Virus record (IMG/VR): IMGVR_UViG_2778261536_000005 | Coordinates: 1-25,360 of that record | DNA from: a virus | Taxonomy: Duplodnaviria > Heunggongvirae > Uroviricota > Caudoviricetes | DNA length: 25,360 nt | Reading direction: 5' to 3' (one strand) | Shown here: positions 1 through 21,988 of the stretch, piece by piece | How the letters are laid out: each line of letters starts with the position of its first letter | Position numbering within the stretch: position 1 is the stretch's first letter | Position numbers and translations under genes: made by a program | Notes under the pieces: generated by a model | What the model was told of the DNA's origin: nothing | What the model saw: only the letters and a program-made list of their open reading frames with translations | Databases searched by the model: none

Positions 1-612
1 CTACGCCTCCGGCAGTTCAGGCCAGATGACATCCGGCGCGGTGCTGGTATCTGTTGCCGTCACCGCGTCAATGTAATCCAGCACAGCGTTAAGGCGGGTT
101 GTTTCTGCCTGCGTCAGTTTACGTCCGGCCTGCAATTTCAGCTGAATCAGACTGATGGAGGCCATTGCAGTATCAATCAGCGACTGGCGCTGTGCTTCTG
201 CTGCATCTACTGCTGCGCCGTGCTGTGCCTCGGTATCCGTCACCCATTTCTCACCATCCCATTTATCGTATGGGGTTAACGGGGCGATAGTGGTTGTATT
301 ATCAGGGTAATCACCCGGAGCTGTGATTTCTTTTGATTCCCCTGTTTCGGTGCTAAAAACGATTTCACCGCGATGGTCTGGCACATATTCCCATGAGTTA
401 AAATCTGCAGAACGGCAGATTGCATAACCAGCTTTATGTGTAACTGGTGCATCTAAACAAGAACATGCCGGGATACCGACACCAACGGCAAGATATTCAG
501 TTGATGTGGAAATATATTCCCGCGTTTCACCGCTGTAGTTGTAAACGGTGATGAAGCCAGCTTCTGTTGCAAATCCGTTTTCATCCAAAGTGATTTTTTT
601 TGTGGTCATCAT
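1..612 (-). CDS. tfa: tail fibre assembly protein (Tfa-like chaperone)
   Basis: 203 aa ORF; C-terminal ...KWDGEKWV...TSTAPDVIWPELP resembles lambda Tfa as recalled; ATGA overlap with the upstream fibre gene. Confidence 0.8.
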   Translation of the reverse strand: MMTTKKITLDENGFATEAGFITVYNYSGETREYISTSTEYLAVGVGIPACSCLDAPVTHKAGYAICRSADFNSWEYVPDHRGEIVFSTETGESKEITAPGDYPDNTTTIAPLTPYDKWDGEKWVTDTEAQHGAAVDAAEAQRQSLIDTAMASISLIQLKLQAGRKLTQAETTRLNAVLDYIDAVTATDTSTAPDVIWPELPEA

Positions 613-1562
613 GATGCCCTTACAATGTAGTTAAATGCAATGTTACGTGGTCGGTTTTCTTCCGCAGTTGGTACAACTCTGGCGGCGGAAAAACCTACGT
701 CATACCTACTACCGGGCGATGAGGTTGTTTGACCAGCGCCGCCTTCGTATACAGCATAAAATGCCCCTGTTACCCACTCGTCTGCTGTCATCTGGCTTCC
801 CGCAGTGGTCATAAGTCCCAAGAGCTTCCCTGATATGTCCCTTATAGCATCACCTTGTGCGGACAGCAGCGCTCGCCCTGAATCGACCCCACGCCCGTCA
901 TCCCAGCCACGAATAAACTCACCACGTAAATCTGGCAATTTATTTGTTGGATAAGCCTTTGCCAGTTCCGGGTATTCTTCAGCAGAAAAAACCGCACCGT
1001 TGCATTTCAGCCAGCCTGTTGGCGGAGTGGCGGAAGGCCACGGAACAGGGACACCAACAGGTAATGCAGAGCCTTCTCCCAAACCAAGGTTTGTGCGAGC
1101 GTCTGCGGCATTCGTTGCGCCGGTTCCGCCGTCTGCGACAGTAACCGCACCGTTGCTCCCTTTCTGCGCAAGTTTACCGATGCCTGGGATGGTTACGGCG
1201 GTGCCGTTGATGGTAACTGTGATGCTTTGGTTTGCTGAGGTTGTGGCGAACGTCTCCCACGCACCAATATTCTCGTCATACTCCTTGATAAGCTGCGACA
1301 TGGCCAGCGCCAGCCCATCAACCGAGATATTGTCTGATACCAGAATTCCATACTTCTGGCCGCTCAGCGCAGGGGAAGCAGCTGGAGTAACCGTCATTGA
1401 CGTGGCGCTGTTCACGGATGAAATCTGAAACAGCTGCACCGGGTTAGACATCACGATAATCGTCTGGCCAGCGCGAACCTGGCTGGCGGGTGCCGTCCAG
1501 TTCGTGCCCGTGCCGGTGGCGCTGTTTCCGTTAATGGCGATGGTTCCAGTGTTATAAAGCAT
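609..1562 (-). CDS. tail fibre protein with C-terminal phage tail-collar-like domain
   Basis: Gly/Thr-rich N-terminal repeats and a C-terminal PWP...GWLxCNG...LPDLRG motif. Track ORF starts at 1607, but that extension contains a hairpin plus T-run; the ATG near 1562 has a GGAGA RBS and is preferred. Confidence 0.7.
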   Translation of the reverse strand: MLYNTGTIAINGNSATGTGTNWTAPASQVRAGQTIIVMSNPVQLFQISSVNSATSMTVTPAASPALSGQKYGILVSDNISVDGLALAMSQLIKEYDENIGAWETFATTSANQSITVTINGTAVTIPGIGKLAQKGSNGAVTVADGGTGATNAADARTNLGLGEGSALPVGVPVPWPSATPPTGWLKCNGAVFSAEEYPELAKAYPTNKLPDLRGEFIRGWDDGRGVDSGRALLSAQGDAIRDISGKLLGLMTTAGSQMTADEWVTGAFYAVYEGGAGQTTSSPGSRYDVGFSAARVVPTAEENRPRNIAFNYIVRAS

Positions 1563-1577
1563 ATTTTCTCCAGGCAA

Positions 1578-1606
1578 TAAAAAACCCCGCCGAGGCGAGG
1601 TTTGCA
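1578..1606 (-). terminator. intrinsic terminator-like hairpin between lipoprotein gene and tail fibre gene
   Basis: Minus strand reads CCTCGC-CTCG-GCGGGG followed by TTTTTT, then an RBS and ATG. Coordinates approximate. Confidence 0.5.
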
Positions 1607-1620
1607 TTGAAAATCATGAG

Positions 1621-1854
1621 TTATTTACATGTCGTGCTTGTGAATGTGTTCGCACTTACCCAGCGCCAGTTAAAGGGATATCCGGCCCGGTATTGCGTCT
1701 GGTTGTTTTGCTTTCGAACGGCGTAAATCATAACGGTATTCTCATGGCCACCCATATATGCCGTGCCGCTGCAAATCGGTTTCTGTTTCTCAAGTACACC
1801 AGCGCAACCAGACAGCATTAAAGCGCCCGCTATGCAGATAATTAGCCTTTTCAT
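1621..1854 (-). CDS. small lipoprotein (signal peptide plus lipobox LSGC); possible Cor-like superinfection exclusion protein
   Basis: 77 aa; N-terminal MKRLIICIAGALMLSGC is a typical lipoprotein signal; AT-rich upstream region. Cor-like role is inferred only from position in the fibre region. Confidence 0.7.
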   Translation of the reverse strand: MKRLIICIAGALMLSGCAGVLEKQKPICSGTAYMGGHENTVMIYAVRKQNNQTQYRAGYPFNWRWVSANTFTSTTCK

Positions 1855-1961
1855 TTTGATAGTATCCAGAGGTATTCAGTAGCTTCGAAGATACCAATAC
1901 ATAATCGATGGATATAATTGATTAGATAGATAAATTATTTGTTATTGATCGCTCAAAACAA

Positions 1962-2600
1962 TCAATCATAGGCGTCTGTTTTAATTGCTGTCAGGATAAT
2001 TCCATTATTTATCACCCCTCCAGCACCGCCAGGTGTATTTGCGGCTGTACCGGCGTTTATTCTTGTACTTGTGCCTGAATACCTACAAGATGAGTAAGCG
2101 TCGTTTCTGTTCACTTGCCCCAGCCTTGATGGAGCCACTGCCCATGAACCATCAAGCGTCTGGTCAATGTTAATCCCGCCGTTTGCTCCAGGCGTTCCGA
2201 TTGTCTGCAAGTCTGACAGCACGCGGGACTCATTAGTGAGTACCAGCTTCCCGCTCGAATCCCAGATGGCCATCCCCCATTTCGGTAACGTCTGGGGAAA
2301 TATGGCAAAAATATATGCGGTTAACGTGAAGCTCTGGTTATAGGGATTAACCCCCGCGACATATATATTTCCGCCGTTCCGGTAAGATATTACTGGCGTG
2401 GGCTGGGCGGTATTTGTGGTCCTGATAAATACCATCACAGGGTAGTCAGCATTTAATGCAATATTCTGAGCAACCTGCTGCGAACTGCCATTAGCAGAGG
2501 AGTTGAAAGTGTACTTGCCGTAAAGACAAAAAGGCGTTGACTGGGGCGTTACAAATGGGTTCCCGTTGTCCATTAATATCATCGCGCCAAATTCGGCCAT
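1962..2600 (-). CDS. hypothetical protein, tandem of two domains related to the adjacent 100 aa ORF
   Basis: 212 aa ORF; TAATG coupling with the upstream ORF; motif WDxSGK occurs internally and at the N-terminus of its neighbour. Confidence 0.6.
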   Translation of the reverse strand: MAEFGAMILMDNGNPFVTPQSTPFCLYGKYTFNSSANGSSQQVAQNIALNADYPVMVFIRTTNTAQPTPVISYRNGGNIYVAGVNPYNQSFTLTAYIFAIFPQTLPKWGMAIWDSSGKLVLTNESRVLSDLQTIGTPGANGGINIDQTLDGSWAVAPSRLGQVNRNDAYSSCRYSGTSTRINAGTAANTPGGAGGVINNGIILTAIKTDAYD

Positions 2601-2902
2601 TATGCTTTCTCCATGAAAACGACCACTTCACACTTTGAGGCCGGATAATTACCCAGACCTACAGAAGATGCAGCGCTTACGGTTATTGTGCTCCCTGACG
2701 CGACAATGCGCCGCCCTACGCTGTTACCTCCTTCATCAAGTGAAAGAACAAAACCAACTTTCATTCCTGAGGGCACCGTAAAAGACCAGCTGCCGGAGGT
2801 TTGCCCGGCAGCCAGCTGTATTCGCCCAACGACGGAAACGGGTTTGATGCCATAGTTGTTGGGTTTTCCTGAAGCATCCCAGGTCTGTATTCCATAAGCC
2901 AT
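2600..2902 (-). CDS. hypothetical protein, paralogous to the 212 aa neighbour
   Basis: 100 aa ORF starting directly after the J stop with a GGGAG RBS; N-terminus MAYGIQTWDASGKP resembles motifs in the next ORF. Confidence 0.6.
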   Translation of the reverse strand: MAYGIQTWDASGKPNNYGIKPVSVVGRIQLAAGQTSGSWSFTVPSGMKVGFVLSLDEGGNSVGRRIVASGSTITVSAASSVGLGNYPASKCEVVVFMEKA

Positions 2903-2903
2903 T

Positions 2904-5900
2904 TCAGAATACTCCCGTTAATCGGCCAACCTGCACCCTAAGAACATTACTGCCATCTTTGACGCTGATCGTCTGATTTGTCAGTTTCATGGCTCCCTCA
3001 CCAGCAGTCGAACCGTAGTTCTCAAACGTCCCCCCTTTATCAAGCTTCCAGCCAGCAGAACCAGCAACATAATTGTTCGACTGGATAAAATTACCAATCT
3101 TTGCGTTGCTGATAGTGCCGTCCTGGATGAAACTGGCCCGGATGAATGTCTGTCCATTCTGGATCACAAACGGCAAAGCCACGCTATTTCCGGCTGCCGT
3201 GGTGACGGCGAAGCGATCAGCCAGGAAGATAACCTGCGACTGCATGCCGGATGGCGTATTCTCCACGCCGATACCCATCCCCGCGGCGTAATACTGACCG
3301 TTGCTGGAAACGCCAACCTTGATGTTGTACATCGCGCTGAGGTCGCCATTAACGTTGGCTATCGCCTGAGCGTTAGTGGTGATGGCGGAGGTATGCCCGT
3401 TCACCGTCGCCGTTATGCCGTTTATCTGCGTGGCCGTAGCCTGCTGATAGTCGGAGAACGTCTGATTCAGGCTATTGATGGATGCCTTGTTGCCGTTGAC
3501 GTCCGTCTGCAGGCTAAGCAGCGAGCGCGCCGTTGCCTCCCTGTCGTTGACAATCACCTCATCAATACGGTCCAGATTCGCGCTGTTGCCGGCGACCGAT
3601 GCAGACAGGGTTTTACGCGCAGCCACCTGCGCCAGCCCGTTCTGGATAATGGCAATGGCTGAGTTCTTGACCCCACCCGTCATGCCGTCCATAGACACAC
3701 TGATGCTGTCGATTCGCTGGCCCAGCGCGGTATCAGCCGTCGCAACGGTCTGCTCAAGCTGACTGAGTGAAGACGAAACATTCCCGACCGTGCTGGAAAG
3801 CTCATTAACGCTGGTCTGAACCTTCCCGACGTCCTGGGCGTTTTTGGCGATATCCTTCGCATGCTGCTCAAGTTCATCATTGGCCTGTTTGATGTCGTCA
3901 GCCATGCCAGCAATTTTTTCATTGCTGTCCACAGCGTTCTCGATCAGGTCTTTGAACGTCTCAGACCCTTTGATGTCTTCAAGGATCACATCTGTGATGT
4001 CAGAAACATCGATACTGGCCTGCCCACGAACCCAGCCGGTATAACCTGACTCGTTACCGCTGCGGTCAACCAGCTGCGCGCGGTACCAGAAAATCTGCCC
4101 AGCCTTAAGGCCCATCTGCTGATATTTGCGCTGCGGGTAAGGCACATCGGCCAGCAGCATGGCATCGTCTTCAGTACCGGTCAGGCTGTACTGAATTTCC
4201 GTCTTCAGCGTGTCGTCGGTATTCGCCGGGAATCCCCAGTTCAGCTCGATACCGAACACCACGTTTTCAGAGGCGATAAAGCCAACAGGCTTCGGTGGAT
4301 TGCCCACTTTACCCGTCAGCGTTTTCTCTTCTGAATAGCCCCATCCGGATGAAATTTCTGCGGCATTGATTGCGCGCACCCGCACCAGGTAGCGCCCGGC
4401 ATAAATCCCCGGGACGTCGAATGACGTGGTGGAGGTGCGCGGCACGTTAACCCAGTTCCCGTCGTTGCGGCGCCATTGCGCTTCATAGGCGATAGCGTTC
4501 TGCGCCTGGTCCCAGCTCACGCGCATTGTTTCGACGCTGATATTTTGCTGAACCACGGAAAACGAGCTGATCACGATGTTCGCAGGCGGCGACTGGTTAC
4601 CAGGCGGGATCACGCTCACCGGCCGCTGGTCAATGATGGCTCCGGTATCGATGCGGGCATATTTATCCGGGTCGTGCCATGCGCCGGTGATTGAGAAAGT
4701 GCCATCACCGTTGTCGGAGACGCTGACAACACGATACTGCTGCGCGTAAAGCTCGTCAGATTCAACCACCCAAACAGCTTCGGCCTGTGGCGTCTCACTG
4801 TATGCCGTGGTGACTGTGACTGATTCCCCGTTCACGGCCTGAATGGTCCTGCTCTGCGACGCTCCGGAAGGTAGGTTGAGAATAAGGCGATCACCTGGTG
4901 CTGCATCAGCTACGCGGTCAAGTTTGATAACGCGACCGTTAACGGCGCTGATGCGGCCGCCCATAACCTTTCCGGAAAGCAGCTCGTCTGCCACGGCGAT
5001 GATGTAGCCCGGCTGCGGAATGTTTCCGTCCAGCCCGACATCAAACGAAACAACGCGATCCTTGTTATTGGTGAGAATACCCCAGCGCCCCTTTCGGTTC
5101 GCCTCTGACTGCCTGGTGCAGCCGATGGCTGTCATTTCCAGCTGATTGAAGCCGTACCGCGCCACCAGCGCCTGCTCAAATACCGGCTCCATCGCGTCGG
5201 CATAAGCGTTACCCGGGTCTGACCATGAAACCAGCGCTGTGGTGTAGCGGCTTTTCGTGGTGCTGCTCGAATAGGTGAAGCGACCGCCAACAACGTTAGC
5301 GCGCGTATAGCTGTAATCAACATCGCGCGGCATGTCAGCCAGGGCCACAATCTGATCCCCGCCCCAGTAGGTCATGCCACGGAAGATAGCGGCAAAATCA
5401 CGCAGGACTGTGTAGGCGTCGTTCCGGTCCTGAATGTACACGTTGCAGGTATAACGTGGTTCTGTACCGTTGCCCCCTTTGCCGTCTGGTACCATCTGAT
5501 CACAATACTGAGCAACCTGATAAAGCGTCCATTTATCAATATTCGCAGCGGTCAAACGGTGCCCAAGGCCGAACCGGTCAGAAACAACCAGGTCGTAAAA
5601 AATCCACGCAGGGTTATCCGTCCATGCCCACTTAAACGCACCGGTCCATGTACCGCTATAAGTGCGGGTTTCAGGGTCGTAGGTATCTGGAACGCGGATA
5701 ACGCGGCCGCGCGGTTCGCATGAAATTTGAGGAATAGAGCCGTTGAACTGGCTTGAGTCGAATTCGACGTAGAGCAGCGCGGTGTTCGGGTAGCGCAGTT
5801 TGGCGTCAATCACCTCGGTGAAGCTCTGCAGCATCATCGTGTCGCCGATCTTCGCGCTGTTGGCGTCAGAGGTAATCTTACGCAGACGTATTGTCCAGGT

Positions 5901-6455
5901 GCTGCCAGCCTGCGGTAAATCGATACGGTGGCTGCGCTCATAACCAGACGTCGTTTTTCCGGTCACGCTGGTATTGAGTACCGTCTGCCATGCGCCGCCG
6001 TCCGTCTGCAGGTCAATTGCATAATTGACCGAGTAACCCACCAGATCGCCGTCGTCCTCCTGTTTGAAAAGCGAGGGCCATTTAAGACGCAGGCGAACTG
6101 CTGAAAGCTGCGTATTGGTAAACGTGCGCGTCCAGGCTGTGGCACTTGATACCTCAGTTCCTACGCTGATCTCGTTTTCGGTACCGGGAATACCCTGAAT
6201 ATATTTTTGCGCCTGAGTTCCCGCGCGAAACTCCCACGTTACCCCGCTGAAGTTTTGGGAGCCGTCAGCATTCTCCAGCGCTGTTCCGTCCAGGTAGATA
6301 TCTTTGCCGGTGAGCTGCCCTGCAAACTCACCTTCCCCAAGCGCAACGAGGATTTTTGCCTTCGCTACAGATTGCAGATCATCAGGCTGTTCGGTAGGAG
6401 TTCGGGAACTTGAGCTGCCGCCCTTGCGGCCTTTTAACACTTTATCTGTAGCCAT
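2904..6455 (-). CDS. J: tail tip / host specificity protein J (central tail fibre)
   Basis: 1183 aa; N-terminal two thirds align with lambda J as recalled (PNTAL...YSGTWTGAFK...KWTLY...YCDQMVPDG); C-terminal third is a divergent Ala/Ser/Asn-rich helical region. Confidence 0.95.
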   Translation of the reverse strand: MATDKVLKGRKGGSSSSRTPTEQPDDLQSVAKAKILVALGEGEFAGQLTGKDIYLDGTALENADGSQNFSGVTWEFRAGTQAQKYIQGIPGTENEISVGTEVSSATAWTRTFTNTQLSAVRLRLKWPSLFKQEDDGDLVGYSVNYAIDLQTDGGAWQTVLNTSVTGKTTSGYERSHRIDLPQAGSTWTIRLRKITSDANSAKIGDTMMLQSFTEVIDAKLRYPNTALLYVEFDSSQFNGSIPQISCEPRGRVIRVPDTYDPETRTYSGTWTGAFKWAWTDNPAWIFYDLVVSDRFGLGHRLTAANIDKWTLYQVAQYCDQMVPDGKGGNGTEPRYTCNVYIQDRNDAYTVLRDFAAIFRGMTYWGGDQIVALADMPRDVDYSYTRANVVGGRFTYSSSTTKSRYTTALVSWSDPGNAYADAMEPVFEQALVARYGFNQLEMTAIGCTRQSEANRKGRWGILTNNKDRVVSFDVGLDGNIPQPGYIIAVADELLSGKVMGGRISAVNGRVIKLDRVADAAPGDRLILNLPSGASQSRTIQAVNGESVTVTTAYSETPQAEAVWVVESDELYAQQYRVVSVSDNGDGTFSITGAWHDPDKYARIDTGAIIDQRPVSVIPPGNQSPPANIVISSFSVVQQNISVETMRVSWDQAQNAIAYEAQWRRNDGNWVNVPRTSTTSFDVPGIYAGRYLVRVRAINAAEISSGWGYSEEKTLTGKVGNPPKPVGFIASENVVFGIELNWGFPANTDDTLKTEIQYSLTGTEDDAMLLADVPYPQRKYQQMGLKAGQIFWYRAQLVDRSGNESGYTGWVRGQASIDVSDITDVILEDIKGSETFKDLIENAVDSNEKIAGMADDIKQANDELEQHAKDIAKNAQDVGKVQTSVNELSSTVGNVSSSLSQLEQTVATADTALGQRIDSISVSMDGMTGGVKNSAIAIIQNGLAQVAARKTLSASVAGNSANLDRIDEVIVNDREATARSLLSLQTDVNGNKASINSLNQTFSDYQQATATQINGITATVNGHTSAITTNAQAIANVNGDLSAMYNIKVGVSSNGQYYAAGMGIGVENTPSGMQSQVIFLADRFAVTTAAGNSVALPFVIQNGQTFIRASFIQDGTISNAKIGNFIQSNNYVAGSAGWKLDKGGTFENYGSTAGEGAMKLTNQTISVKDGSNVLRVQVGRLTGVF

Positions 6456-6461
6456 ATTGCG

Positions 6462-6492
6462 CCCATAAAAAAGCCACCCGAAGGTGGCCAGA
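6462..6492 (-). terminator. terminator-like hairpin between I and J
   Basis: Plus strand CATAAAAAAGCCACC-CGAA-GGTGGC; on the minus strand the stem is followed by TTTTTTAT and then the J start. Coordinates approximate. Confidence 0.5.
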
Positions 6493-6507
6493 AAAAAGGT
6501 TAGTTAT

Positions 6508-7116
6508 CTACTGCTGATCTTCGACATAAATTCCGGCAGAAATAATCGCTCCGCCGATTCGACGCTTACCATAAAGCAGAGGCACCGGGTAGCCTTGCGC
6601 TGCAGTGTTGGTTACCCCGCCAAACGCATACGATGCACGGTTATCTGCGCTTTGTTTACTGGCTATGCCTGATGGCTGCGGTGAAAGCAGCTGAATAACC
6701 CCACCGAGGACCAACGAGGCACCAGTGGCAGCAGCAAACCCCGTCAATCCACCAGCAGCGAAAGCAGCGCCAATACCGCCGGGGCCAGTCAACACAGCAG
6801 CAGTAATAAGCACGGCCCCCAAGATCGTCTGCAAAAGACCAGCCTTTTTACTCCCTATTACTACAGGGACAATCCGGATCACTTCGCCGGTGACGGGAAA
6901 GCCGAGATCATCAACGCCAATATTCTTTTTATCTCTATAAACGGCATACGTCAGCCCTCGGGCTTTGCTTGTGTTTAAGAATTTCTCGAATCCATTGATG
7001 GTTTTCGCGAGTGCATTAATGGCTTCAGCAGTAGTGCGAACCAGACGGTGATGAACCCTTCCATATGTCTTAGCTAGCACGCCACTTAGCTCAATTCTTG
7101 TCATTACCTCTTGCAT
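6508..7116 (-). CDS. I: tail assembly protein I
   Basis: 202 aa ORF between K and J as in lambda; hydrophobic Gly/Ala-rich central segment. Confidence 0.75.
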   Translation of the reverse strand: MQEVMTRIELSGVLAKTYGRVHHRLVRTTAEAINALAKTINGFEKFLNTSKARGLTYAVYRDKKNIGVDDLGFPVTGEVIRIVPVVIGSKKAGLLQTILGAVLITAAVLTGPGGIGAAFAAGGLTGFAAATGASLVLGGVIQLLSPQPSGIASKQSADNRASYAFGGVTNTAAQGYPVPLLYGKRRIGGAIISAGIYVEDQQ

Positions 7117-7123
7117 GCTGCCC

Positions 7124-7152
7124 CCATAAAAAAACCACCCGTAGGTGGTTTG
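7124..7152 (-). terminator. terminator-like hairpin downstream of the small membrane protein gene, upstream of I
   Basis: Plus strand CATAAAAAAACCACC-CGTA-GGTGGTT, a near copy of the hairpin at 6462-6492 with a compensatory outer base pair; minus strand has a T-run after the stem. Confidence 0.55.
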
Positions 7153-7165
7153 TTAATTTACGCTC

Positions 7166-7390
7166 TCAAAGCCCAGCTTTTTTCCTTGCTTCTTCAAGGT
7201 AGTTTTCTTTCGACTGGTCTTTGTTATTTGCCTCGAAGTTTGGATCTACTATTTTTGATAATTTCTGGTCGATAGACTCAAGTAATTCAACCTGCCTGTT
7301 CGCTCTGACGCTGGCGCGGTTGATGAAAAACCAGAGAATTAACCCAATAAAAATACCGACGAAGATCCAACCAAACCCAACTGTATACAT
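7166..7390 (-). CDS. small single-pass membrane protein, moron between K and I
   Basis: 74 aa; N-terminal hydrophobic helix (VGFGWIFVGIFIGLILWFFI) then a charged C-terminal tail; strong AAGGAG RBS; AT-rich codon usage unlike neighbours; own downstream hairpin. Confidence 0.7.
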   Translation of the reverse strand: MYTVGFGWIFVGIFIGLILWFFINRASVRANRQVELLESIDQKLSKIVDPNFEANNKDQSKENYLEEARKKAGL

Positions 7391-7394
7391 ATCG

Positions 7395-7440
7395 TTCTCC
7401 TTGCCGTGTACTACACGATAGTATCAGTGACAGTTTGTTA
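7395..7440 (-). promoter_or_regulatory. candidate promoter/operator upstream of the membrane protein gene
   Basis: Perfect palindrome CGTGTA-C-TACACG just upstream of the RBS and a -10-like TACTAT on the minus strand; the -35 is weak. Confidence 0.3.
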
Positions 7441-8148
7441 AATAAAATTCTGATGTCTAAGAATCTTCATCGTCCTTTCCTGCCAGTAGCCACCATACGG
7501 CACGCGCTGGCTCAGATGTCCGTACAGGTGGTGCAGCAGCATATTGCCCTCCAGCAGAATTCCAGCGTGGTTCCACTTATCAGCCTGGACCTGCATGATC
7601 ACCATATCGCCGGGTTTCGGTGGTCCGTCGAATTCACGGAATCCGCACTCATACCAGCAATCCTGATAGAAGTTGTCCGGATAGTCGTTTTCCCACCAGG
7701 GATAATCAACCCGGTAATCGTGGAGCTCGATACCGTGGGTCTGCCGGAAATAGCTCATTACCAGCCCCCAGCAGTCGAAGTGTCCAAGCACAAACGGACG
7801 CTCCAGCAGTGGCAACTCACCACGCGGCTGAATGGTACGTAAATCCCCCTCGGGCCAGCTCACGATATGCCAGGGTAAAAGCGTTGCGTCGCATTGCGCT
7901 TTATCCAGTTCGCTCGGCTGCGTAGTGGCGTCAGGGTGACTGTGAACGATGGCTATCACCGTACCCCAGTCCTCAGCAGCTGCATAGTCTTCTGGAGACA
8001 GGTGAAAATGTTCTGTCGGCTCGGTAGCGAGGTTACTACATGGAAAATATTTCTCTACCCGGCTCTTTTGCGCCACCACGCCGCAACACTCACGAGGATA
8101 TTCAGCTGCAGCATGCGCCATAATCGCATCGATGGTTTTCTGACGCAT
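7438..8148 (-). CDS. K: tail assembly protein K (JAB/MPN plus NlpC/P60-like domains)
   Basis: 236 aa; HSHPD metal-binding motif and Cys/His residues typical of lambda K family; position between L and I. Confidence 0.9.
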   Translation of the reverse strand: MRQKTIDAIMAHAAAEYPRECCGVVAQKSRVEKYFPCSNLATEPTEHFHLSPEDYAAAEDWGTVIAIVHSHPDATTQPSELDKAQCDATLLPWHIVSWPEGDLRTIQPRGELPLLERPFVLGHFDCWGLVMSYFRQTHGIELHDYRVDYPWWENDYPDNFYQDCWYECGFREFDGPPKPGDMVIMQVQADKWNHAGILLEGNMLLHHLYGHLSQRVPYGGYWQERTMKILRHQNFI

Positions 8149-8149
8149 A

Positions 8150-8905
8150 TCAACTCCTGATCAGCGACGTACCAGGGAAGCCACCAAACGAGAGTTCGTT
8201 ATTTTCGCCGAACCGAAGTTTGCAGGCCGTCAGCGTTCCGTTGCATTCATCCAGTGACGGATCGCTTACCTGGTTGTTGTTTTTGTCGAAATAGCGCGTA
8301 CCGGCATAGTCGCAGCCGTCGCCGGTTCGGTACTTGTTCCGGATGCACCATGTGCACAGAGAATGAAGCTGGCGGGTAGGTATCATCAGCCCCTGCAGAT
8401 CCATAGGGCTGGATAGTGTGAACTCAACAACTTCATTGGTTTCACTGCTCTTTGCATCGATGTAGAAAACCTTCAGCTTCTCCTGGGTCGGATCGGCTGT
8501 CGGATTGCCTCCGGTGAAGTTTCTCGCATCGAGATACTTACCAAGGGTGTCATGTATCGTCACCTTCGCCTGCAGCATATCGTCGTAAGCCAGGCAAAGC
8601 GCGGTGATCGAACTGTCGAGGTTAGCAACCGAAAGTTTTGGCTGGGCACTACTTCCCGAGGTTGAAGCTTCGATCCCCTCAATCTGGCATGGCCACGCTT
8701 TATACTCCTCACCCTGCCACCAGATAGATTTTGCTGGCAGTTTATTTTCATCACCGCCAGCAGCGATAATTTCGGCTTCAGAGTGCGCAAGACTGTAGCT
8801 GTGAAATCGCAGCACATCACCTGTACCAAATGCCGTGCCATCCACTTCGAAAAGCCTGACCACATCGCCAGGTTCGAGCTTCTGAAAATCTGCGTTAAGA
8901 CTCAT
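8150..8905 (-). CDS. L: minor tail protein L
   Basis: 251 aa; conserved Cys cluster (CTWC...DGCDYAG...CKLRFG...FGGFPG) matching lambda L as recalled. Confidence 0.9.
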   Translation of the reverse strand: MSLNADFQKLEPGDVVRLFEVDGTAFGTGDVLRFHSYSLAHSEAEIIAAGGDENKLPAKSIWWQGEEYKAWPCQIEGIEASTSGSSAQPKLSVANLDSSITALCLAYDDMLQAKVTIHDTLGKYLDARNFTGGNPTADPTQEKLKVFYIDAKSSETNEVVEFTLSSPMDLQGLMIPTRQLHSLCTWCIRNKYRTGDGCDYAGTRYFDKNNNQVSDPSLDECNGTLTACKLRFGENNELSFGGFPGTSLIRS

Positions 8906-9243
8906 GGTTTGTAGGCCTGTTCAAAAGTTGCAGAAAGATTAAATAACCCGGCACCAAGTGGCGTTGGTGTGTAGGTGTCGCAGCGGTAAAGCCCGAGAGG
9001 CTCAAGCGGCGGGCGCCACTGAAACGCCGTCACGCCCGCATGGCGATCGAGAAAGTCTTTAATCGCCCCGATATACGTTTCGGTACCGGTAAACTGGAGA
9101 GTCCATTTCTGCGAGCGGGGATTAATCCCGTCGCCGGAAACCTGCTGATATCCGTCACCGAACTGCGCGGTGCGCCGTCGGAATGTCACTTCCTGCTCCG
9201 CGTTCGGGCGCGGACACCAGCTGAATGTTTCTATAGCCATCAC
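8902..9243 (-). CDS. M: minor tail protein M
   Basis: 113 aa; FGDGYQQ motif as in lambda M; overlaps L and H by 4 nt each. Confidence 0.85.
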   Translation of the reverse strand: MMAIETFSWCPRPNAEQEVTFRRRTAQFGDGYQQVSGDGINPRSQKWTLQFTGTETYIGAIKDFLDRHAGVTAFQWRPPLEPLGLYRCDTYTPTPLGAGLFNLSATFEQAYKP

Positions 9244-11660
9244 CGCCCTCCTTTTGCCAGATTCCAGACCGCGCCACCGGGTGAAAGGTCACGGCCTATC
9301 AACTCGCGGTATCGCCGATCAACAAAACTACCTACCTCCCGCCCGAATTGCTCATATCCACCGCTAGCCTGAGTCTGGGTATTCCCATTGCCATCAATCT
9401 GAATACTGACCTGAGGAGCACTACTACCACCCGGTGTTAAGCCTGAGATTCCCATAGCACGCACGCCAAGCGATCCGTCAGCGGCGCGGGTCAGTGGCAT
9501 AATAGCCTCCGGCCCAGCCTCCCCCATCAATCCGGCCCCTTTGGCAAAGGCAAACAGTGTTGGAGAGCTGACGACAGAGTTACTGTACTGACTGAGATCG
9601 GCAGAAGAGTAAACGCCGCCTTTGGCGTTGAATTGCAGGCTCGCCCCGTAGGACTGAATCGCAGTACCGCTGCTGGCGGAAGACGATGCGGCACCACCGA
9701 ACAATGAGCCTATCGAGCTGGCTGCATTGGCGATCATCATGTTAACCATCACCTGTTCGATGATTTTCAGAACACTGACACCCCAGTCTTTCCAGCTCGC
9801 TTTATTGCCGTTGAGCATGTCGACGATATTGCTGCTGATACCGGAAAGCGCGCTTTTCATAGCGTCCGCCGCCAGCGTCGCATAGTTAGTTGAATCATCT
9901 ACCCAGTCAGCGAGACCGTCTCTGGCGCCAGTCACCCAGTCAGACTGCAGCGCATCAATTTGACTGTAATAATCCTCCTGGATGCCCAGCCTCTCAGCTT
10001 GCGCATCCTTTAATGCCTGGGTTTCGCGGTCATAAACTGTCTGGCTGATATCTCCTGACTGATACTGCTTTTGCAGATCGCGCTGCTGATCGAGATAACT
10101 GCGCTCTATACTCAGCCTTTCCCTCAGCCTTTCACGCTGCTTGTCACCGAGTCCGGCCCCCTGAATATCCACGCCCAAATCTGCACGTGCATTCTCGTTC
10201 TGCTCCTGCAGATTTGCCACGAACGCCGCTACCTTCGCGTTTTCTTCATTAGCTTTTTTGACGGCATTAAGGCGATCAACTTCCTGAGCCAGAGACGCAA
10301 GTCGTTTCTTCTGGGTTTCGTTAAGCCCCTGCAACTTGCCGTCAGCTATATCGAACTGCAGTTTTTGCTGCTCGGTCACCACAGCAGTTTTTTTGCCGGT
10401 GGTATCGATCAGCTCAATCTGACGCATGTAACTGCGCTCAGCGCTTTTAAACGCTGAATCCAGTTTCTGACCAGAGGTATTTTTTTGCGGCTTACCGTTT
10501 GTTTCCCCGGCGCCAAGGGTATAGTTTGTTTTGACTGGCTCGGGCAGTTTTATTTCCGGTAGAGTAGATTGGGAGTTTCTCAAAAAGGCCAGTCGCCTCT
10601 GGAGCTCAGCCCTTTCGGCCTCCTTACCGGATACGTCCATACCTATTCTGTTGAAACTCGCCAGTATGCCTTTATCATCGAGATCTGCATTCAGGTTCTT
10701 GATGCGCCGTTCAATTTCTGGAATGGAGGCATTCAGGCCGACCGAACTCCCACCTTTGTACTGGTCTATCAGCTTTCCGGCCTCGGCTCCTACCCTTACC
10801 AGCCAGGTGGCAAGGTCCACTACCCCACCAACCAGATCAGTCAGACCCTGAATAACAGCCGGGTCTTTAAATACATCCCCCATATCTCCAATAGACTTCT
10901 GGAGCCCACTCAAATCTACGCTGGCGAGCCCTGCAGCAAGTTCAATTTTGACGCCGTTGACCTGCGTCTCCATATCCTCAAACAGGGCGTTGACTCTGAC
11001 CAGCTTTTCAATATCTGCGTCATCGGGCGCCACACCAAACTTCTTCGCGGCATCCATATACTGACGCAGCTTTTCACTGCCATTGTCCAGGAGCGGCAGC
11101 ATCTTTGACAGGTCATTACCCAGACTCTCCAGGATGGTAGTCTTCTCGGCGTTGGACTTAACTTTCTCCAGTGCGTCGCTGATAGCCAGGAGTTGCTTGT
11201 CGGGAGATTCTCCGGCCAGTTTCTTAGCCGACAAACCCAGAGCGTCCAGCGCACCGACCGCCTCACCAGATTTATTAAGAACGGCATCACCGATTTTGTC
11301 TCCGACATCTTTAAAGATATCGGCCATCTGATCGCCGGAAACACCTGCTTTTTCTGCAGCATATTGCCAGGCTAACAGGGACTGCGTGGACATGTTAAGT
11401 GACTTTGCCCAGCGGTCTGATTCGGTAATCTGACGTGAAGTGGTTTTGAGCAGGTTATACCCCGCCACTCCGGCTCCGATGGCTGCAGCCCCGACTGCTG
11501 TTGCGAATCCGGTCATGGCAGCTGCAGCGGCAGCGGCATCCTCCTTTACCTGCTTACGCCATTTTTGTGAAGCTCGCTCAGCCTGCGAGAGGCCTGAGAC
11601 AAAACCGCCCACTTTGGCAATCAGGTCGATCGTCAGCGTGCCCAGTGATTTGGAAGCCAT
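9240..11660 (-). CDS. H: tail tape measure protein H
   Basis: 806 aa, Ala/Gly-rich N-terminus and long helical central region; sits between G-T and M. Confidence 0.9.
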   Translation of the reverse strand: MASKSLGTLTIDLIAKVGGFVSGLSQAERASQKWRKQVKEDAAAAAAAMTGFATAVGAAAIGAGVAGYNLLKTTSRQITESDRWAKSLNMSTQSLLAWQYAAEKAGVSGDQMADIFKDVGDKIGDAVLNKSGEAVGALDALGLSAKKLAGESPDKQLLAISDALEKVKSNAEKTTILESLGNDLSKMLPLLDNGSEKLRQYMDAAKKFGVAPDDADIEKLVRVNALFEDMETQVNGVKIELAAGLASVDLSGLQKSIGDMGDVFKDPAVIQGLTDLVGGVVDLATWLVRVGAEAGKLIDQYKGGSSVGLNASIPEIERRIKNLNADLDDKGILASFNRIGMDVSGKEAERAELQRRLAFLRNSQSTLPEIKLPEPVKTNYTLGAGETNGKPQKNTSGQKLDSAFKSAERSYMRQIELIDTTGKKTAVVTEQQKLQFDIADGKLQGLNETQKKRLASLAQEVDRLNAVKKANEENAKVAAFVANLQEQNENARADLGVDIQGAGLGDKQRERLRERLSIERSYLDQQRDLQKQYQSGDISQTVYDRETQALKDAQAERLGIQEDYYSQIDALQSDWVTGARDGLADWVDDSTNYATLAADAMKSALSGISSNIVDMLNGNKASWKDWGVSVLKIIEQVMVNMMIANAASSIGSLFGGAASSSASSGTAIQSYGASLQFNAKGGVYSSADLSQYSNSVVSSPTLFAFAKGAGLMGEAGPEAIMPLTRAADGSLGVRAMGISGLTPGGSSAPQVSIQIDGNGNTQTQASGGYEQFGREVGSFVDRRYRELIGRDLSPGGAVWNLAKGGR

Positions 11661-11679
11661 AAACTCTCCGTTGGCGGCA

Positions 11680-12341
11680 TTATGTCCAGCTGGCTCTGGC
11701 TTCCTCTAACGAGATTGGTCCATCAGCAGCTTTGACTTTGGTAAAGTGAAGTGTGAAATCGGTCGGGTTGAATGGTGGGCGCTTGGGGTCTCTGTTAACG
11801 TTGGCTATCATGCTGCTCACCAGCCCGGCACCCCACTCAACCCGCAACATAGGGTTCAGACTCCCGTATCGTTCCCGGTACTTTGCCCAGAGTTGGGACT
11901 CTTTGAATGAGAGGACTTCCCGCGCTTCGGCGATTGTTCTGCCTCCGATTCCGTTGAGGACGAGCTCGCACCAGAATTCGTCTTCGGCGCTGAGCTCGAA
12001 GTCTTTCCCAGATCGTTAACTTCCTGAATGGCTAGAAGCAGTGCTACCGTCAGGCCGCCATCCAGTGCACCACGTTCAGGATCTGCCTCACCAGTAATGT
12101 CAGCCGGGGTGAAGATGGGTTTACCATGTTCATCGCAGATGGATGCGGCGATACGCCCTGCCACACCATCGACCTTACCACCAAAAGCCAGCACATCGGA
12201 CGTTGCTGTGTGATAACCCATCGGGCGAACATACACGGTCGCGGTGATTTTTTTATCGCCTTGCGTCCAGGTGATTTCTTTCTCAACCGGGCGACCGGTA
12301 AACGCGCCGGACTCCTTGAGTGCATCAAGTGTTAATTTCAT
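11680..12341 (-). CDS. T: tail assembly chaperone G-T fusion made by programmed -1 ribosomal frameshift
   Basis: Slippery heptamer G_GGA_AAG in the G zero frame (codons LGK, about 12003-12009); the -1 frame stays open for 108 codons and stops about 20 nt before the tape measure ATG. Confidence 0.7.
11856..12341 (-). CDS. G: tail assembly chaperone G (zero-frame product)
   Basis: 161 aa ORF directly downstream of the major tail gene; contains the slippery site; zero frame continues 47 Ser-rich codons past it. Confidence 0.8.
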   Translation of the reverse strand: MKLTLDALKESGAFTGRPVEKEITWTQGDKKITATVYVRPMGYHTATSDVLAFGGKVDGVAGRIAASICDEHGKPIFTPADITGEADPERGALDGGLTVALLLAIQEVNDLGKTSSSAPKTNSGASSSSTESEAEQSPKRGKSSHSKSPNSGQSTGNDTGV

Positions 12342-12343
12342 TA

Positions 12344-12378
12344 TTAATCCTGATTAATAAGGGCGTTGCCGCCCTGAT
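12344..12378 (-). other. hairpin between major tail protein gene and G
   Basis: AGGGCG-GCAA-CGCCCT perfect 6 bp stem right after the major tail stop, followed by A/U-rich sequence and the G RBS; possible attenuator or stability element. Confidence 0.35.
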
Positions 12379-12379
12379 T

Positions 12380-12880
12380 TTATGGGGTCACGACTTTTGG
12401 CACCCATACAGCAGAGCCGGAGCGCTGGATAGATGCAGAAGTAGAAACAACCGTGTTTGCTGCAAAATCAAACGGGAAGTCGGACACATAGCCTTTGAAT
12501 ACGAACCATGTGCGGCTATTAGGTAGCACCAGGCCATCGACTGCACCGGATGCACCATTTTCAGCCGCAGTTGGTGATGCGGTTCCGTCTGACCATCCAA
12601 TCGCGAAGGTCAGGTCCTGATCCTCTTCGTCGTCCGAAATGGACAGGTTGTAGAGCATGATGTGGCTGGTATTTTTAGGATCAGCGTTAAGCGTCAGTGA
12701 TGCTGTGCCAGGCGTTCGAAGACCACGCTTATAGCTGCGATCAAAGCGTTCAGAAAGACAGGTGTCTTCAATCTGGTCAGCCGGATTGCTGCCGGGTGAA
12801 AATGCAGTGATACATTCAACTTCGCTCACCTCGCCTTTTACGAGCACAAAGAGCTGCGTACCTTGCGTCAATACAGACAT
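12380..12880 (-). CDS. major tail (tube) protein
   Basis: 166 aa ORF in the conserved position upstream of G/G-T; strong GGAGA RBS. Confidence 0.75.
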
Positions 12881-12889
12881 TGTTATCTC

Positions 12890-12926
12890 CGGTCATAAAA
12901 AAACCGGCTCAAGGCCGGTGGTTGAA
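12890..12926 (-). terminator. intrinsic terminator-like hairpin upstream of the major tail gene
   Basis: Minus strand ACCGGC-CTTGA-GCCGGT followed by TTTTTTT, then RBS and ATG of the major tail gene. Confidence 0.55.
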
Positions 12927-12934
12927 TAATACGT

Positions 12935-13300
12935 TTATCGAGTGACTATCCAGTCAACATCGAATGAGTAGCGATAGCGCTTTGTTTCGGGGTCTCTTTC
13001 CTGTCCGCCCCAGCGCGTGATATGCGCGTGCGGCTCAATGGCATCCCGCAGCGCAGTAGCCACGGCAATCACTTCATCCACGGTGTCGGCATATGCATCC
13101 ACCTGCAGCGTGAAAAAGTCTGCGTCAGGGCGCTGGGCAATGTAGTTCTCTGGAGAACCGGTGATGTTCTGCCAGACCACATAGGGATAGACCACGTTGT
13201 CGTCCTGAATTCCGAAAGGATAAATTCTTACCGGATTGCTTCCGAGTAAGTCAGTGACTTCAGGACTCGACGCGCAAACAGAAAAAATAGGGGCAATCAT
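12935..13300 (-). CDS. tail terminator / tail completion protein (DUF3168-like)
   Basis: 121 aa ORF immediately upstream of the major tail gene; size and position fit this family; assignment by recall only. Confidence 0.55.
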   Translation of the reverse strand: MIAPIFSVCASSPEVTDLLGSNPVRIYPFGIQDDNVVYPYVVWQNITGSPENYIAQRPDADFFTLQVDAYADTVDEVIAVATALRDAIEPHAHITRWGGQERDPETKRYRYSFDVDWIVTR

Positions 13301-13845
13301 GCAGTGGTTCCTTTCTTCGTGGCCAGCCTGATAGCGCGATCAATAGCCTTTCCCATTTCCGTAGAAAAAACATTAATCACGTCATTATCTACGCCGTTCA
13401 TTGCAGGTCGGAGGATAGGCCGCGCTGATGTGTGCTCAGTACCAAACTCAAGAAAACGCCAGTACCAGGTATCTCCTCCTGGATTGCCTTTATCTCCTGA
13501 GGTTTTGTATGTTTTACCCGCTCTGCCTTTTCTGACGTTTGCCTTTGTATTTGCATACTGCCTGGCACCGCCCATTACCCCGACACGGAATGCCAGATCA
13601 CCTGTCCTGCGGAATTGCTTGCTGCTGAAGCTGGCGACGATATTTTTGTGGATTGCTTCTTTAGTCAGAGGATCATCAACTCGTGACGCGTTGCTTCTGG
13701 CCCGATCCCTTATAATGTTTGCCGCCTTACGCAATGCAAACCGACCGGCTTTATTACGGGTGACTTCTGATACGGCCTCCATTTTCCCAAGAAGTGATTC
13801 AAGCCCGGTAAGGCTTACCTCAACACTATCAGCCATCATTAACAC
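13297..13845 (-). CDS. HK97 gp10-family neck / tail-component protein
   Basis: 182 aa; C-terminal WRFLEFGT...ARPILRPA resembles the hallmark motif of the HK97 gp10 family. True start may be a few codons downstream. Confidence 0.65.
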   Translation of the reverse strand: MLMMADSVEVSLTGLESLLGKMEAVSEVTRNKAGRFALRKAANIIRDRARSNASRVDDPLTKEAIHKNIVASFSSKQFRRTGDLAFRVGVMGGARQYANTKANVRKGRAGKTYKTSGDKGNPGGDTWYWRFLEFGTEHTSARPILRPAMNGVDNDVINVFSTEMGKAIDRAIRLATKKGTTA

Positions 13846-14161
13846 CCTCAGAACAGGGAAGCGTCAGGTATTCACGTCCGCTTTTTGGATCGGGCAGAAC
13901 ACCATGGATGTTATACACAGCACCACGAAACAAGATGCGATGTTTTCTGGTAACTCCGGCACGGTAGCGAATAACAATACGGGTGGTTATTTCACCCTGA
14001 GAAGCCTGCGCAGCAATAAATTCACGCGCTGACAATGGTGAAACTTCGGCCCGGACAGTCGCAACATCTCGCCAGGTATTAATTACGGCTCCCGTTGTCG
14101 GGTTCTGCACTTTTACTGGCTCCTGCAGAGTAATCCTGTGGCGCAATTTCCCGGCCTGCAT
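13829..14161 (-). CDS. head-tail adaptor / head closure protein (Phage_H_T_join-like)
   Basis: 110 aa; N-terminal GKLRHRITLQ and internal IRYR motifs typical of this family. Confidence 0.75.
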   Translation of the reverse strand: MQAGKLRHRITLQEPVKVQNPTTGAVINTWRDVATVRAEVSPLSAREFIAAQASQGEITTRIVIRYRAGVTRKHRILFRGAVYNIHGVLPDPKSGREYLTLPCSEGVNDG

Positions 14162-14162
14162 G

Positions 14163-14360
14163 TTACCCCCTGGGTTTACCGCTCAGATAGGTTTGTTGCT
14201 CTGCAGTTTCATCTAGTTCACCAGCCAGCGACTGGATAATGACATCGCAAAGCGCCATATTTGATTCAGCCAGACGGCTTATCGCTTCCGTCTGCTCCCT
14301 CTGCGCTGTGATTTGTTCCCGTATCACTGCTATCAGTTCGTTTACCAGTTGCTCGTTCAT
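14163..14360 (-). CDS. small hypothetical helical protein in the head-tail joining region
   Basis: 65 aa ORF with ATGA coupling to the upstream ORF; acidic, predicted helical; no family recognised. Confidence 0.45.
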   Translation of the reverse strand: MNEQLVNELIAVIREQITAQREQTEAISRLAESNMALCDVIIQSLAGELDETAEQQTYLSGKPRG

Positions 14361-14593
14361 AAGCTATTTTTGCCCACTTTTTTATCCACTCGCTCCGTTG
14401 CGCGCATCCAGACGCGAATCGTTGCCTGCGCCGTTTCCGCGCCGCCTGAAAGCTGCTCTCTGCCGCTGATCCTCTTTACCTCAGCCGGGACCGGGTTGCC
14501 ACCTGTCCACGATTCAACCGGCTGACCAGATGGATCGCGCGAAGTCGTGAAGGTGAGAATTTTTACCCGGTTCCTGAATCGTCCAGGTTCCAT
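14357..14593 (-). CDS. short head-tail adaptor-like protein
   Basis: 78 aa; FRNRVKIL...W...AEV...SGRE...IRVW pattern resembles the N-terminal part of the adjacent adaptor family; coupled to flanking genes. Confidence 0.5.
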   Translation of the reverse strand: MEPGRFRNRVKILTFTTSRDPSGQPVESWTGGNPVPAEVKRISGREQLSGGAETAQATIRVWMRATERVDKKVGKNSL

Positions 14594-14919
14594 CAGGAGC
14601 CCTCCTCTGATTCGGCTTTTCCGCGCCAGTTGCGATGAATGAACATCATGCGTTCGGCGGCTGCATTCTCATAAAGCTGCACTTCGCTTTGTGCCGTCCG
14701 GTGTTCAAACATGTCAGCAAAGACAAGCAGAACGGCGCCCTTAACGGCGGCAGGAATATCAGCCGCAACCTTCCATGCTGGTTCATCGCACCAGCGCATG
14801 CAGTAGTCAAAAGCGGCCTGGGCGTACAGCGTGATCAGCTCGTCCCTGTCGTCTTCCTCAAACTCAATCTGCTGCTTAAACAGACTGAGGGAAATTACAT
14901 CCAGAACATCTATCGCCAT
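14593..14919 (-). CDS. head-tail connector protein (gp6-like)
   Basis: 108 aa acidic ORF immediately after the major capsid gene, the conserved gp6 position in HK97-type gene order. Confidence 0.7.
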   Translation of the reverse strand: MAIDVLDVISLSLFKQQIEFEEDDRDELITLYAQAAFDYCMRWCDEPAWKVAADIPAAVKGAVLLVFADMFEHRTAQSEVQLYENAAAERMMFIHRNWRGKAESEEGS

Positions 14920-14921
14920 AC

Positions 14922-14952
14922 GTTAAAAGGGCGGGTTTCCCCGCCCCCTCCA
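14922..14952 (-). terminator. intrinsic terminator after the major capsid gene
   Basis: Minus strand GGGCGGG-GAAA-CCCGCCC (7 bp GC stem, GNRA loop) followed by UUUU, directly after the capsid stop codon. Confidence 0.65.
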
Positions 14953-16110
14953 TCATGAGCCAGAAGAGAAGGTGCCCTTGATGATTGCTGTCGGGCGATA
15001 ATGCGCCAGCGCCAGACGCTCTTCGCACAGGATGGTCAGCATGTTTTTCACGAAGTTATCGCGGTCTTCACGGCTAACTTCCACGGTGGCATCCATGCGA
15101 TCCCAGACCTGTGAGGCCATATCGAAACCGCCTACGGTAAAGGTGCCGGCGGCCTGCGCCTTAGTCGGAACCACTGGCAAGCCCCACATGATGTTACTGG
15201 TGAATGCCTGAGGACCACCGAAGATATAGCGGCCTTCATTGTCTTTCAGCAACGCGATGTTGTGCCAGTCGCGCGGGTTCAGGACGATACCGGAAGCGCT
15301 GAACTCAGACTCGGTCACCTGATAAATAGCGTGAGCGATAATGTCAGCGCGGGTGTCGCCGGTGGCATTCAGCGAGGTGTCATAGGCGGTTGCCACTTTG
15401 TTCAGCCCTTCCAGGTTATCCCCGGTACCGTCGCCGTTCAGCAGCTGGCCCTCTTCCTTCAGTGCCAGGCCGTACATGAGGCGGTTGTTAATGTAGGACT
15501 GAAGCATTGGCGCATCATCCATCACCTGACGTGATGCCTGCACCCAGTGCGCGATGGTCTTCACGTTCGCGGTTTGTTTGCTGAAGGTGATATCCGATTC
15601 TGGCTTCAGTGCTTTCTCTGCCACCACGTCGGCGTTATTGGTAAACACCTCTTCACGCACATATTCCAGAGCGTTACTGGAAGTGCGGCCCTGAGCCAGC
15701 AGATCACGAATGGTAAGACGGCGCAGGCCTGGCATGATGATGCCTGGGATCTGCATAGGCTGGATCAGTGAGCCAGCCGAATCAGCGTCACTGCCTAGTG
15801 ACTTGTTAAACGTTTTAGCGCCAAAGGTGCCCTGTTTACCGTCCCATGACTTAATAAGCTCTTCAGCAGCCCGTTCAGAGAAGGATTTCTTCTCACCAGG
15901 ATTCTCAGCGCCGGATGCCAGTTTCTGTTCCAGATCGAAGAGGCGAGTGCCGGATTTGGTCAGCTCTTCCTGTACTTTCATCAGGTCGGACTGCAACTGT
16001 TTGGAAACCTGGCCTGTGCTTTCGATTTCTGCTTTCTGCGCATCGAAAAGCTGGGTCATTTTCTGCTGGGATTCTTCGATAGCTTTTTGAATGAGAGCGA
16101 GTTCAGACAT
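14953..16110 (-). CDS. major capsid protein, HK97 family
   Basis: 385 aa; closely matches phage HK97 gp5 as I recall it (N-terminal delta domain, SKQTANVK and NFVKNMLTILCEERLALAHYRPTA regions). Confidence 0.95.
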   Translation of the reverse strand: MSELALIQKAIEESQQKMTQLFDAQKAEIESTGQVSKQLQSDLMKVQEELTKSGTRLFDLEQKLASGAENPGEKKSFSERAAEELIKSWDGKQGTFGAKTFNKSLGSDADSAGSLIQPMQIPGIIMPGLRRLTIRDLLAQGRTSSNALEYVREEVFTNNADVVAEKALKPESDITFSKQTANVKTIAHWVQASRQVMDDAPMLQSYINNRLMYGLALKEEGQLLNGDGTGDNLEGLNKVATAYDTSLNATGDTRADIIAHAIYQVTESEFSASGIVLNPRDWHNIALLKDNEGRYIFGGPQAFTSNIMWGLPVVPTKAQAAGTFTVGGFDMASQVWDRMDATVEVSREDRDNFVKNMLTILCEERLALAHYRPTAIIKGTFSSGS

Positions 16111-16112
16111 AA

Positions 16113-16802: not shown

Positions 16803-16807
16803 AAAAA

Positions 16808-19596: not shown

Positions 19597-19602
19597 AGTC
19601 TT

Positions 19603-20088: not shown

Positions 20089-20089
20089 A

Positions 20090-20273
20090 TGTCAACACCT
20101 TAAAACTAAAAAAATCGGGTTAGCGTTAAATTCAAACTTTGGCGGCGGTCATTTGGGGCAAAGGTTTTGAAGATTTGATCCCCCCCCCTGCCCTGAATGC
20201 GATTCATTCTCATTTGATATCGTTGCATTTGAAATGATTTCACATGATAGATAATCTACTTGCCGCCGCCGCG
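20090..20273. other. candidate cos / terminase recognition region
   Basis: Non-coding segment between the HNH-coupled ORF and TerS with oppositely oriented GC-rich elements (TTGGCGGCGGTC and TTGCCGCCGCCGCG), a C8/G8 homopolymer and AT-rich stretches; the cut site cannot be fixed from sequence alone. Confidence 0.35.
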
Positions 20274-21790: not shown

Positions 21791-21929
21791 AGCGTCTTTA
21801 CCTTTTAGAAAGTGAGCCTGTCTCACAGAAAAGCCGCCCGAGAGAGGTCGCCACCTATAACGGCATTTCTCAGGCTCGCTTACTGAAAGGCTCTCGTTAA
21901 TATGCGCGTGAGATGCGCGTTTACTGCGG

Positions 21930-21960: not shown

Positions 21961-21988
21961 TAAATGGACTTTGTGATTTGCAAAAAAA

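Follow-up and report, generated by a model that had tools for sequence, protein, structure and literature searches.

We identify the 77-aa open reading frame in the tail-fibre region of the DNA analysed here (25,360 nt from a virus of the Caudoviricetes, in the following called the window) as cor, the gene of a phage exclusion lipoprotein, and as far as sequence comparison can establish the identity of a gene, this assignment is certain. The explanation which best accounts for the data as a whole, and which we hold with considerable confidence, is that of the cor gene of a lambdoid phage or prophage of the HK022/HK106 type, the product of which would act upon the transporter FhuA by the mechanism proposed below. 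The gene is one that has already been described. It bears its annotation in RefSeq E. coli genomes as well as in public records of phages, and the cor family has been under study since the 1990s, so that the locus carries little weight as a discovery. It serves as a positive control, in that a receptor-blocking lipoprotein was recognised from the raw sequence via its position and its signal, and it provides a temperate-phage example of a receptor-specificity cassette linked to a cognate exclusion lipoprotein.

The coding sequence of the 77-aa prolipoprotein has an ATG start and occupies positions 1621..1854 on the minus strand, a delimitation for which the ORF list, the family profiles and the annotation of the corresponding HK106 gene (HK106_023, “Cor protein”) were used. 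The NCBIfam equivalog profile NF047972 (“phage exclusion lipoprotein Cor”) matches with 138.8 bits against a cutoff of 31, with residues 1–76 of the protein aligned to profile positions 1–76 of 78, and PHROG 1119 (“Cor superinfection exclusion protein”) matches with an E-value of 2.4e-37. There is no family for Cor in Pfam, where matches to MiAMP1 and LPAM_1 were sub-threshold only. By tblastn, phages HK106, HK75, HK542 and HK544 encode an annotated Cor that agrees with the protein in every residue (100% identity), and an alignment gave the same value for Cor of HK022, the gene of which is labelled “moron gene product; gp27; phage exclusion” in its record. An earlier note on this DNA had proposed a Cor-like role solely from the position and type of the protein and had suggested HMM and BLAST searches against the Cor family as a check; with the profile score and the complete identity to annotated Cor proteins, that proposal is now backed by sequence and turns out to have been understated.

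Matches to Cor were found by tblastn in 237 records among 50,697 phage records, and 114 homologues were detected among 5.8 billion proteins, those with a name being mostly called Cor. They come from Escherichia, Enterobacter, Citrobacter, Klebsiella, Salmonella, Kluyvera and Rouxiella. The cor region is also present in 86 of 5426 complete E. coli genomes, and all ten of the records listed among these 86 carry the annotation “cor: phage exclusion lipoprotein Cor”.

When compared with the known systems, the gene shows no difference from cor of the HK022/HK106 group: HK022 (gp27), HK106, HK75, HK542 and HK544 have the identical 77-aa sequence, in the same position and with the same terminator, while the genome around it is put together as another mosaic. 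Cor of phi80 is 79% identical (about 16 substitutions), and phi80 agrees with the present phage in the cassette and the terminator as well as in the last 148 residues of J. It was with the Cor proteins of phi80 and N15, to which that of mEp167 may be added, that “lysogenic conversion” was originally described, and the direct comparison made here was with phi80. More distant are the Cor-like exclusion lipoproteins of T1-like phages (Drexlerviridae) and Dhillonvirus, which resemble the protein in belonging to PHROG 1119, in their full-length identity of 30–46% (tblastn) and in having the same two cassette genes upstream, but differ in that they are much more divergent and are encoded by virulent phages with early lytic expression and no prophage.

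The N-terminus of the protein (MKRLIICIAGALMLSGC) has Lys2 and Arg3, followed by a hydrophobic core and the lipobox L-S-G-C, so that residues 1–17 (1804..1854, minus strand) can be read from the sequence as a lipoprotein signal peptide. Cys17 is predicted to be the lipidated residue 1 of mature Cor. The residue following it is Ala, which is compatible with sorting to the outer membrane under the +2 rule; a lipobox signal peptide, a lipidatable Cys and a +2 residue other than Asp form the sequence pattern of the family. A lipoprotein signal on a 77-aa ORF had thus been noted correctly, with the strand missing. The strict pattern of n-region, h-region and lipobox, which we applied to ORFs of at least 40 aa in all six frames over the whole window, is rare: of 746 candidate start sites it picked out four, namely that of cor, two nested ones of the known lipoprotein Rz1 and a spurious one inside the portal gene. 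Rz1 is the sole other genuine lipobox ORF in the window; its gene (22042-22227, minus strand; Pfam PF06085, E 2.2e-20) lies out of frame inside Rz (21989-22483, minus strand).

Mature Cor would consist of residues 17–77 (61 aa), and contains exactly three cysteines, C17, C28 and C76, the number that had been counted before. An alignment of 25–28 Cor homologues shows no exception at C17 or C76, and at C28 the conservation is 90% or more. The core motif of the mature domain, YRAGYPFNWRW, is similarly constrained, with Y55, A57, G58, P60, F61 and W65 invariant, so that the 77-aa ORF possesses both the conserved Cys pair and the core motif by which the Cor family is recognised.

The position of cor within the tail region is equally characteristic. 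It is the last gene of a cassette that follows J and precedes the side tail fibre gene, and the order J, 100-aa ORF, 212-aa ORF, cor, terminator and stf is common to HK106, HK022 and phi80. All of these are on the minus strand: J (2904..6455), the 1183-aa central tail fibre or tip protein with a C-terminus of the phi80 type, as determined by alignment with J of HK022 and phi80; the first post-J gene (2600..2902), coding for the 100-aa protein, which matches PHROG 557 (“outer membrane protein”, E 2.4e-36); the second (1962..2600), coding for the 212-aa protein, which matches PHROG 425 (“membrane associated protein”, E 9.7e-75); cor with its terminator; stf (609..1562; Pfam Collar, PHROG 3100); and a gene for tail fibre assembly (1-612). 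No family in Pfam or NCBIfam covers either the 100-aa or the 212-aa protein. Conservation of the two ORFs reaches from the lambdoid phages as far as the T1-like ones and Dhillonvirus, and the 212-aa protein is 100% identical to its homologue in HK022, 50% to that in T1 and 56% to that in the BASEL phage KarlBarth.

These two genes had been described as unknown ORFs downstream of J. They are not unrelated neighbours of cor, as they form with it a published three-gene cassette that is linked to FhuA specificity (PMC13164509, PMC8594841). The three-gene locus is found directly downstream of J in T1, HK022, N15, ES18 and phi80, “all relying on FhuA” (PMC13164509), and small siphoviruses have been reported to carry a receptor-specificity locus together with a cognate exclusion lipoprotein behind gpJ (PMC8594841; bioRxiv 10.64898/2026.04.02.716166). 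Both post-J ORFs have been proposed in recent papers to be FhuA-specific receptor-binding and accessory proteins (PMC13164509, PMC8594841, bioRxiv 10.64898/2026.04.02.716166).

On the evidence of such comparisons, the receptor of this phage itself is very probably FhuA. We draw this conclusion because J is 98% identical to J of HK022, because its last 148 residues (1036–1183) are 100% identical to those of phi80 J, with which it shares only 59% identity overall, and because homologues of the cassette occur in T1 and in FhuA-targeting BASEL phages; phi80 is a classical FhuA-dependent phage (PMC10373560). That FhuA would also be the target of Cor is taken from experiments in the literature on orthologues, together with the identity of the protein to Cor of HK022. 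In PMC3594210, which cites Uc-Mass 2004, lysogens are reported to be shielded from FhuA-dependent phages by Cor of HK022, N15 and phi80, which inactivates FhuA, and ferrichrome uptake is reported to be lowered as well.

The process that we favour is as follows. After export, the 77-aa precursor would receive its lipid on Cys17 and lose its signal peptide to signal peptidase II, and mature Cor would then fold into a small five-stranded beta-barrel, the two ends of which are probably tied together by a disulphide between Cys28 and Cys76. We infer that Cor would bind, in the manner of Llp of phage T5, to the periplasmic face and the plug of FhuA. This transporter of ferrichrome is TonB-dependent, and the tail tip of the phage itself would use it as receptor. 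FhuA would thereby be locked in a state that refuses phages, resulting in the exclusion of FhuA-dependent phages, including siblings of the resident one, and in a reduced uptake of ferrichrome. As the last member of the three-gene cassette (100-aa ORF, 212-aa ORF, cor) behind J, cor would travel together with FhuA specificity.

The binding mode in this proposal is modelled on what has been described for Llp, which binds the periplasmic face and the plug of FhuA. In Llp-bound FhuA the plug is in a non-native state, and the extracellular loops EL7 and EL8 are folded inwards over the phage-binding site. Mature Llp has 61 aa with cysteines at positions 1, 11 and 58, and a disulphide links Cys11 to Cys58; mature Cor likewise has 61 aa, with cysteines at mature positions 1, 12 and 60. 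An AF2 model of Cor, with a pLDDT of 82 overall and of 85–95 in the mature part, predicts a small beta-barrel with disulphide-tied termini, as is typical of the Llp fold, and it is to Llp that the predicted fold comes closest. The match between the two folds is modest, because in a Foldseek search of the PDB with the Cor model Llp ranked 45th, at an E-value of 0.5 and behind generic Tudor, chromo and SH3-like barrels; no PDB entry matched at an E-value of 0.001 or below. In the BFVD, the best Foldseek matches were Cor-type and other phage lipoproteins. Published predictions have come to the same Llp-like conclusion for HK022 Cor (bioRxiv 10.64898/2026.03.26.714494), and also for the Cor proteins of phi80, mEp167 and T1-like phages (bioRxiv 10.64898/2026.03.26.714494; PMC13164509), and for T1-like Cor a docking on periplasmic FhuA has been predicted (PMC13164509). 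Our independent fold comparison supports the view of Cor and T5 Llp as structural relatives acting on FhuA.

Homology between Cor and Llp at the level of sequence was considered and rejected. A Cor profile did not match Llp among the PDB sequences at E-values up to 10, hhalign aligned the Cor alignment to Llp over 29 columns only, these covering the signal peptide and the region of the first Cys, and Llp did not match NF047972 when scanned with NCBIfam, so that no homology beyond the signal peptide was detected. Llp (PDB 8A60, 7QJF) differs from Cor also in that the aligned identity is about 11%, that it stands outside NF047972, and that for Cor the binding mode is a predicted one. Of the likeness to T5 Llp that had been put forward in the earlier note, the fold and the Cys pattern have therefore survived, but detectable sequence homology has not, nor has the implied grouping of T5 with the lambdoid phages, as T5 is not lambdoid.

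Some of the features surrounding cor would suit a transcription unit of its own. Upstream of the gene is an AT-rich spacer (1855..1961, minus strand) of 107 nt, with 29% GC compared to 51.7% for the window, which we presume from its composition to contain the promoter and the 5' leader. It is conserved with phi80 to about the same degree as the coding region of cor; the alignment of spacer, cor and terminator with phi80 gives a mean column identity of 88%. Downstream, a terminator scan identified an intrinsic terminator (1582..1603, minus strand) with a 9-bp G+C-rich stem, a CUCG loop and a U-run, which folds with -17.7 kcal/mol (z-score -2.5 against shuffled sequence). It is conserved between HK106 and phi80, and is annotated in both as rho-independent. 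An AT-rich upstream region and a hairpin with T-run belonging to the gene itself had both been recognised previously, and both stand. The terminator and the spacer fit an expression of cor from the repressed prophage, which we infer to take place, while the late operon under Q antitermination would read past the cor terminator into stf.

One candidate sigma-70 promoter, CTGACA-18-TATGAT (1965..1994, minus strand), is weak and overlaps the end of the 212-aa ORF, and its -35 element is not conserved in the phi80 alignment. Between positions 1400 and 2700 there was no excess of sigma-70-like matches, with one being found and 2.2 expected from shuffled sequences. A Fur box, by which cor might have been co-regulated with fhuA in response to iron, was rejected, as the best match in 1855-2000 agrees in only 10 of 19 positions; a match of 13 of 19 at 1995-2013 is one of four equally good matches in the window and thus at chance level.

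Directly past the stop codon of the 212-aa ORF, at about 1944-1966, there is an imperfect inverted repeat, ATTGAT(T/C)G-N7-CGATCAAT, the phi80 copy of which is perfect in the alignment, and which is missing from the output of the repeat tool. Within the leader of cor, it could form a hairpin in the RNA or be bound by a protein. A further observation concerns the start of the tail fibre gene: the longest ORF and the HK106 annotation (record position 19290) both begin at 1607, so enclosing the cor terminator. An ATG at 1562 is the more plausible start, as it is preceded by GGAG and aligns with the annotated start of phi80 gp25, and the deposited stf coding sequence is probably 15 codons too long.

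Of several possible alternatives to the explanation given above, the most radical is that the ORF is a chance or decayed frame, or encodes a lipoprotein with a role other than exclusion, for instance in virulence or serum resistance as with the morons Lom and Bor. Small phage ORFs in tail regions often have no assigned function, and the lack of a Pfam family might be read in the same sense, though neither point is specific to this ORF. We assign a negligible probability to this reading, which is effectively refuted by the full-length match to the curated NF047972 equivalog and by the identity to annotated Cor, and against which also speak the strict synteny with J and the conservation of the lipobox, the cysteines and YRAGYPFNWRW at 55–97% identity across Escherichia, Enterobacter, Citrobacter, Klebsiella and Salmonella. 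[quoted passage not shown] Interactions of Cor with these six proteins were reported by Arguijo-Hernandez et al. 2018, as related in a review (PMC9311878), which uses the term “antiadsorption (Cor-OMP interaction)”. The mechanism of Cor is said in the 2026 Llp preprint to have “not yet been elucidated” (bioRxiv 10.64898/2026.03.26.714494), and the failure of the profile search and of hhalign to detect homology to Llp is likewise consistent with an action unlike that of Llp. We nevertheless regard an indirect action as improbable, and prefer a direct binding of FhuA.

The remaining alternatives concern the stage of the phage life cycle at which Cor would matter. It might be a mainly lytic protein, made late under Q antitermination, which would keep the progeny from being wasted on the debris of the dying cell by inactivating the FhuA found there, with an exclusion by the prophage that is weak or negligible. 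This is a possibility to which we give some room, while still judging it unlikely. It would agree with the location of cor within the late tail operon and on the same strand, with the absence of a convincing autonomous cor promoter from our scan, and with the proposal that Llp/Cor-type proteins protect progeny from debris (PMC13164509). It is opposed by the protection of lysogens reported for Cor of HK022, N15 and phi80 in PMC3594210, by the annotation of cor as a moron in the HK022 record, and by the conserved AT-rich spacer and dedicated terminator, which suit a separate transcription unit. In addition, the mEp167 prophage of the 2004 Uc-Mass study reportedly expressed exclusion constitutively, which also counts against a mainly lytic role. 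A published plating result speaks for a mainly lytic role and against our explanation (PMC11364771, where Cor is unmentioned): for HK106, whose J/cor module is the same, normal plating was reported on a lysogen of phi80 delta-taiEcA, although cor is present in this prophage and phi80 has the same J C-terminus. The result suggests that exclusion at the level of the prophage is weak in some conditions or that Cor acts mostly in the lytic cycle. This result also hints at a stronger statement, namely that Cor alone is ineffective at the prophage level against sibling FhuA phages, its role being lytic or requiring the cassette proteins or other outer membrane partners. We are rather sceptical of this; if true, it would require a revision of what textbooks say of Cor, namely that as a factor of lysogenic conversion it brings about exclusion by itself. 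The reading that we favour is that cor would be expressed from the prophage, with FhuA as the probable direct target.

The window as a whole is an ordinary Hendrixvirinae mosaic, a relative of HK106 and HK022. Positions 1-6500 are 100% identical to HK106 (JQ086369.1, 14397-20896), where cor and the terminator are annotated at the matching positions, and the match to HK106 extends over 1-9240 at 96%. There is no HK106 match for 9240-14402, which carries a tail shaft and tape-measure module resembling that of HK022, and the matches resume at 14402-20088 (99.5%) and 20089-25324 (99.96%). The heads, the lysis genes and the region from J to tfa are HK106-like, while the tail shaft module is HK022-like. 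At about 20088/20089, in the cos region, the match passes from one end of the linear HK106 record to the other, which implies that the source of the window was a prophage or a circular form. No single identical record for the window was present in the collections of phages and complete E. coli genomes; the best whole-window matches were to phage mEpX2 (85% coverage, 98.4% identity) and to E. coli prophages with coverage of up to 89%.

Three further regions of the mosaic may be mentioned. Between the lysis cassette and the gene for the small terminase are a gene for a 174-aa MUG113/T5orf172-domain protein (21302-21826, minus strand) and one for an HNH endonuclease (20477-20830, minus strand) in a position like that of HK97 gp74, and about 450 nt without a long ORF are found at 20830-21300. 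Between the K-like and I-like tail genes lies a 74-aa ORF (7166-7390, minus strand) with an N-terminal transmembrane helix (MYTVGFGWIFVGIFIGLILWFFIN...). It is the counterpart of HK022 gp20 and of HK106_018, termed a “moron”, downstream of which a terminator is annotated in HK106.
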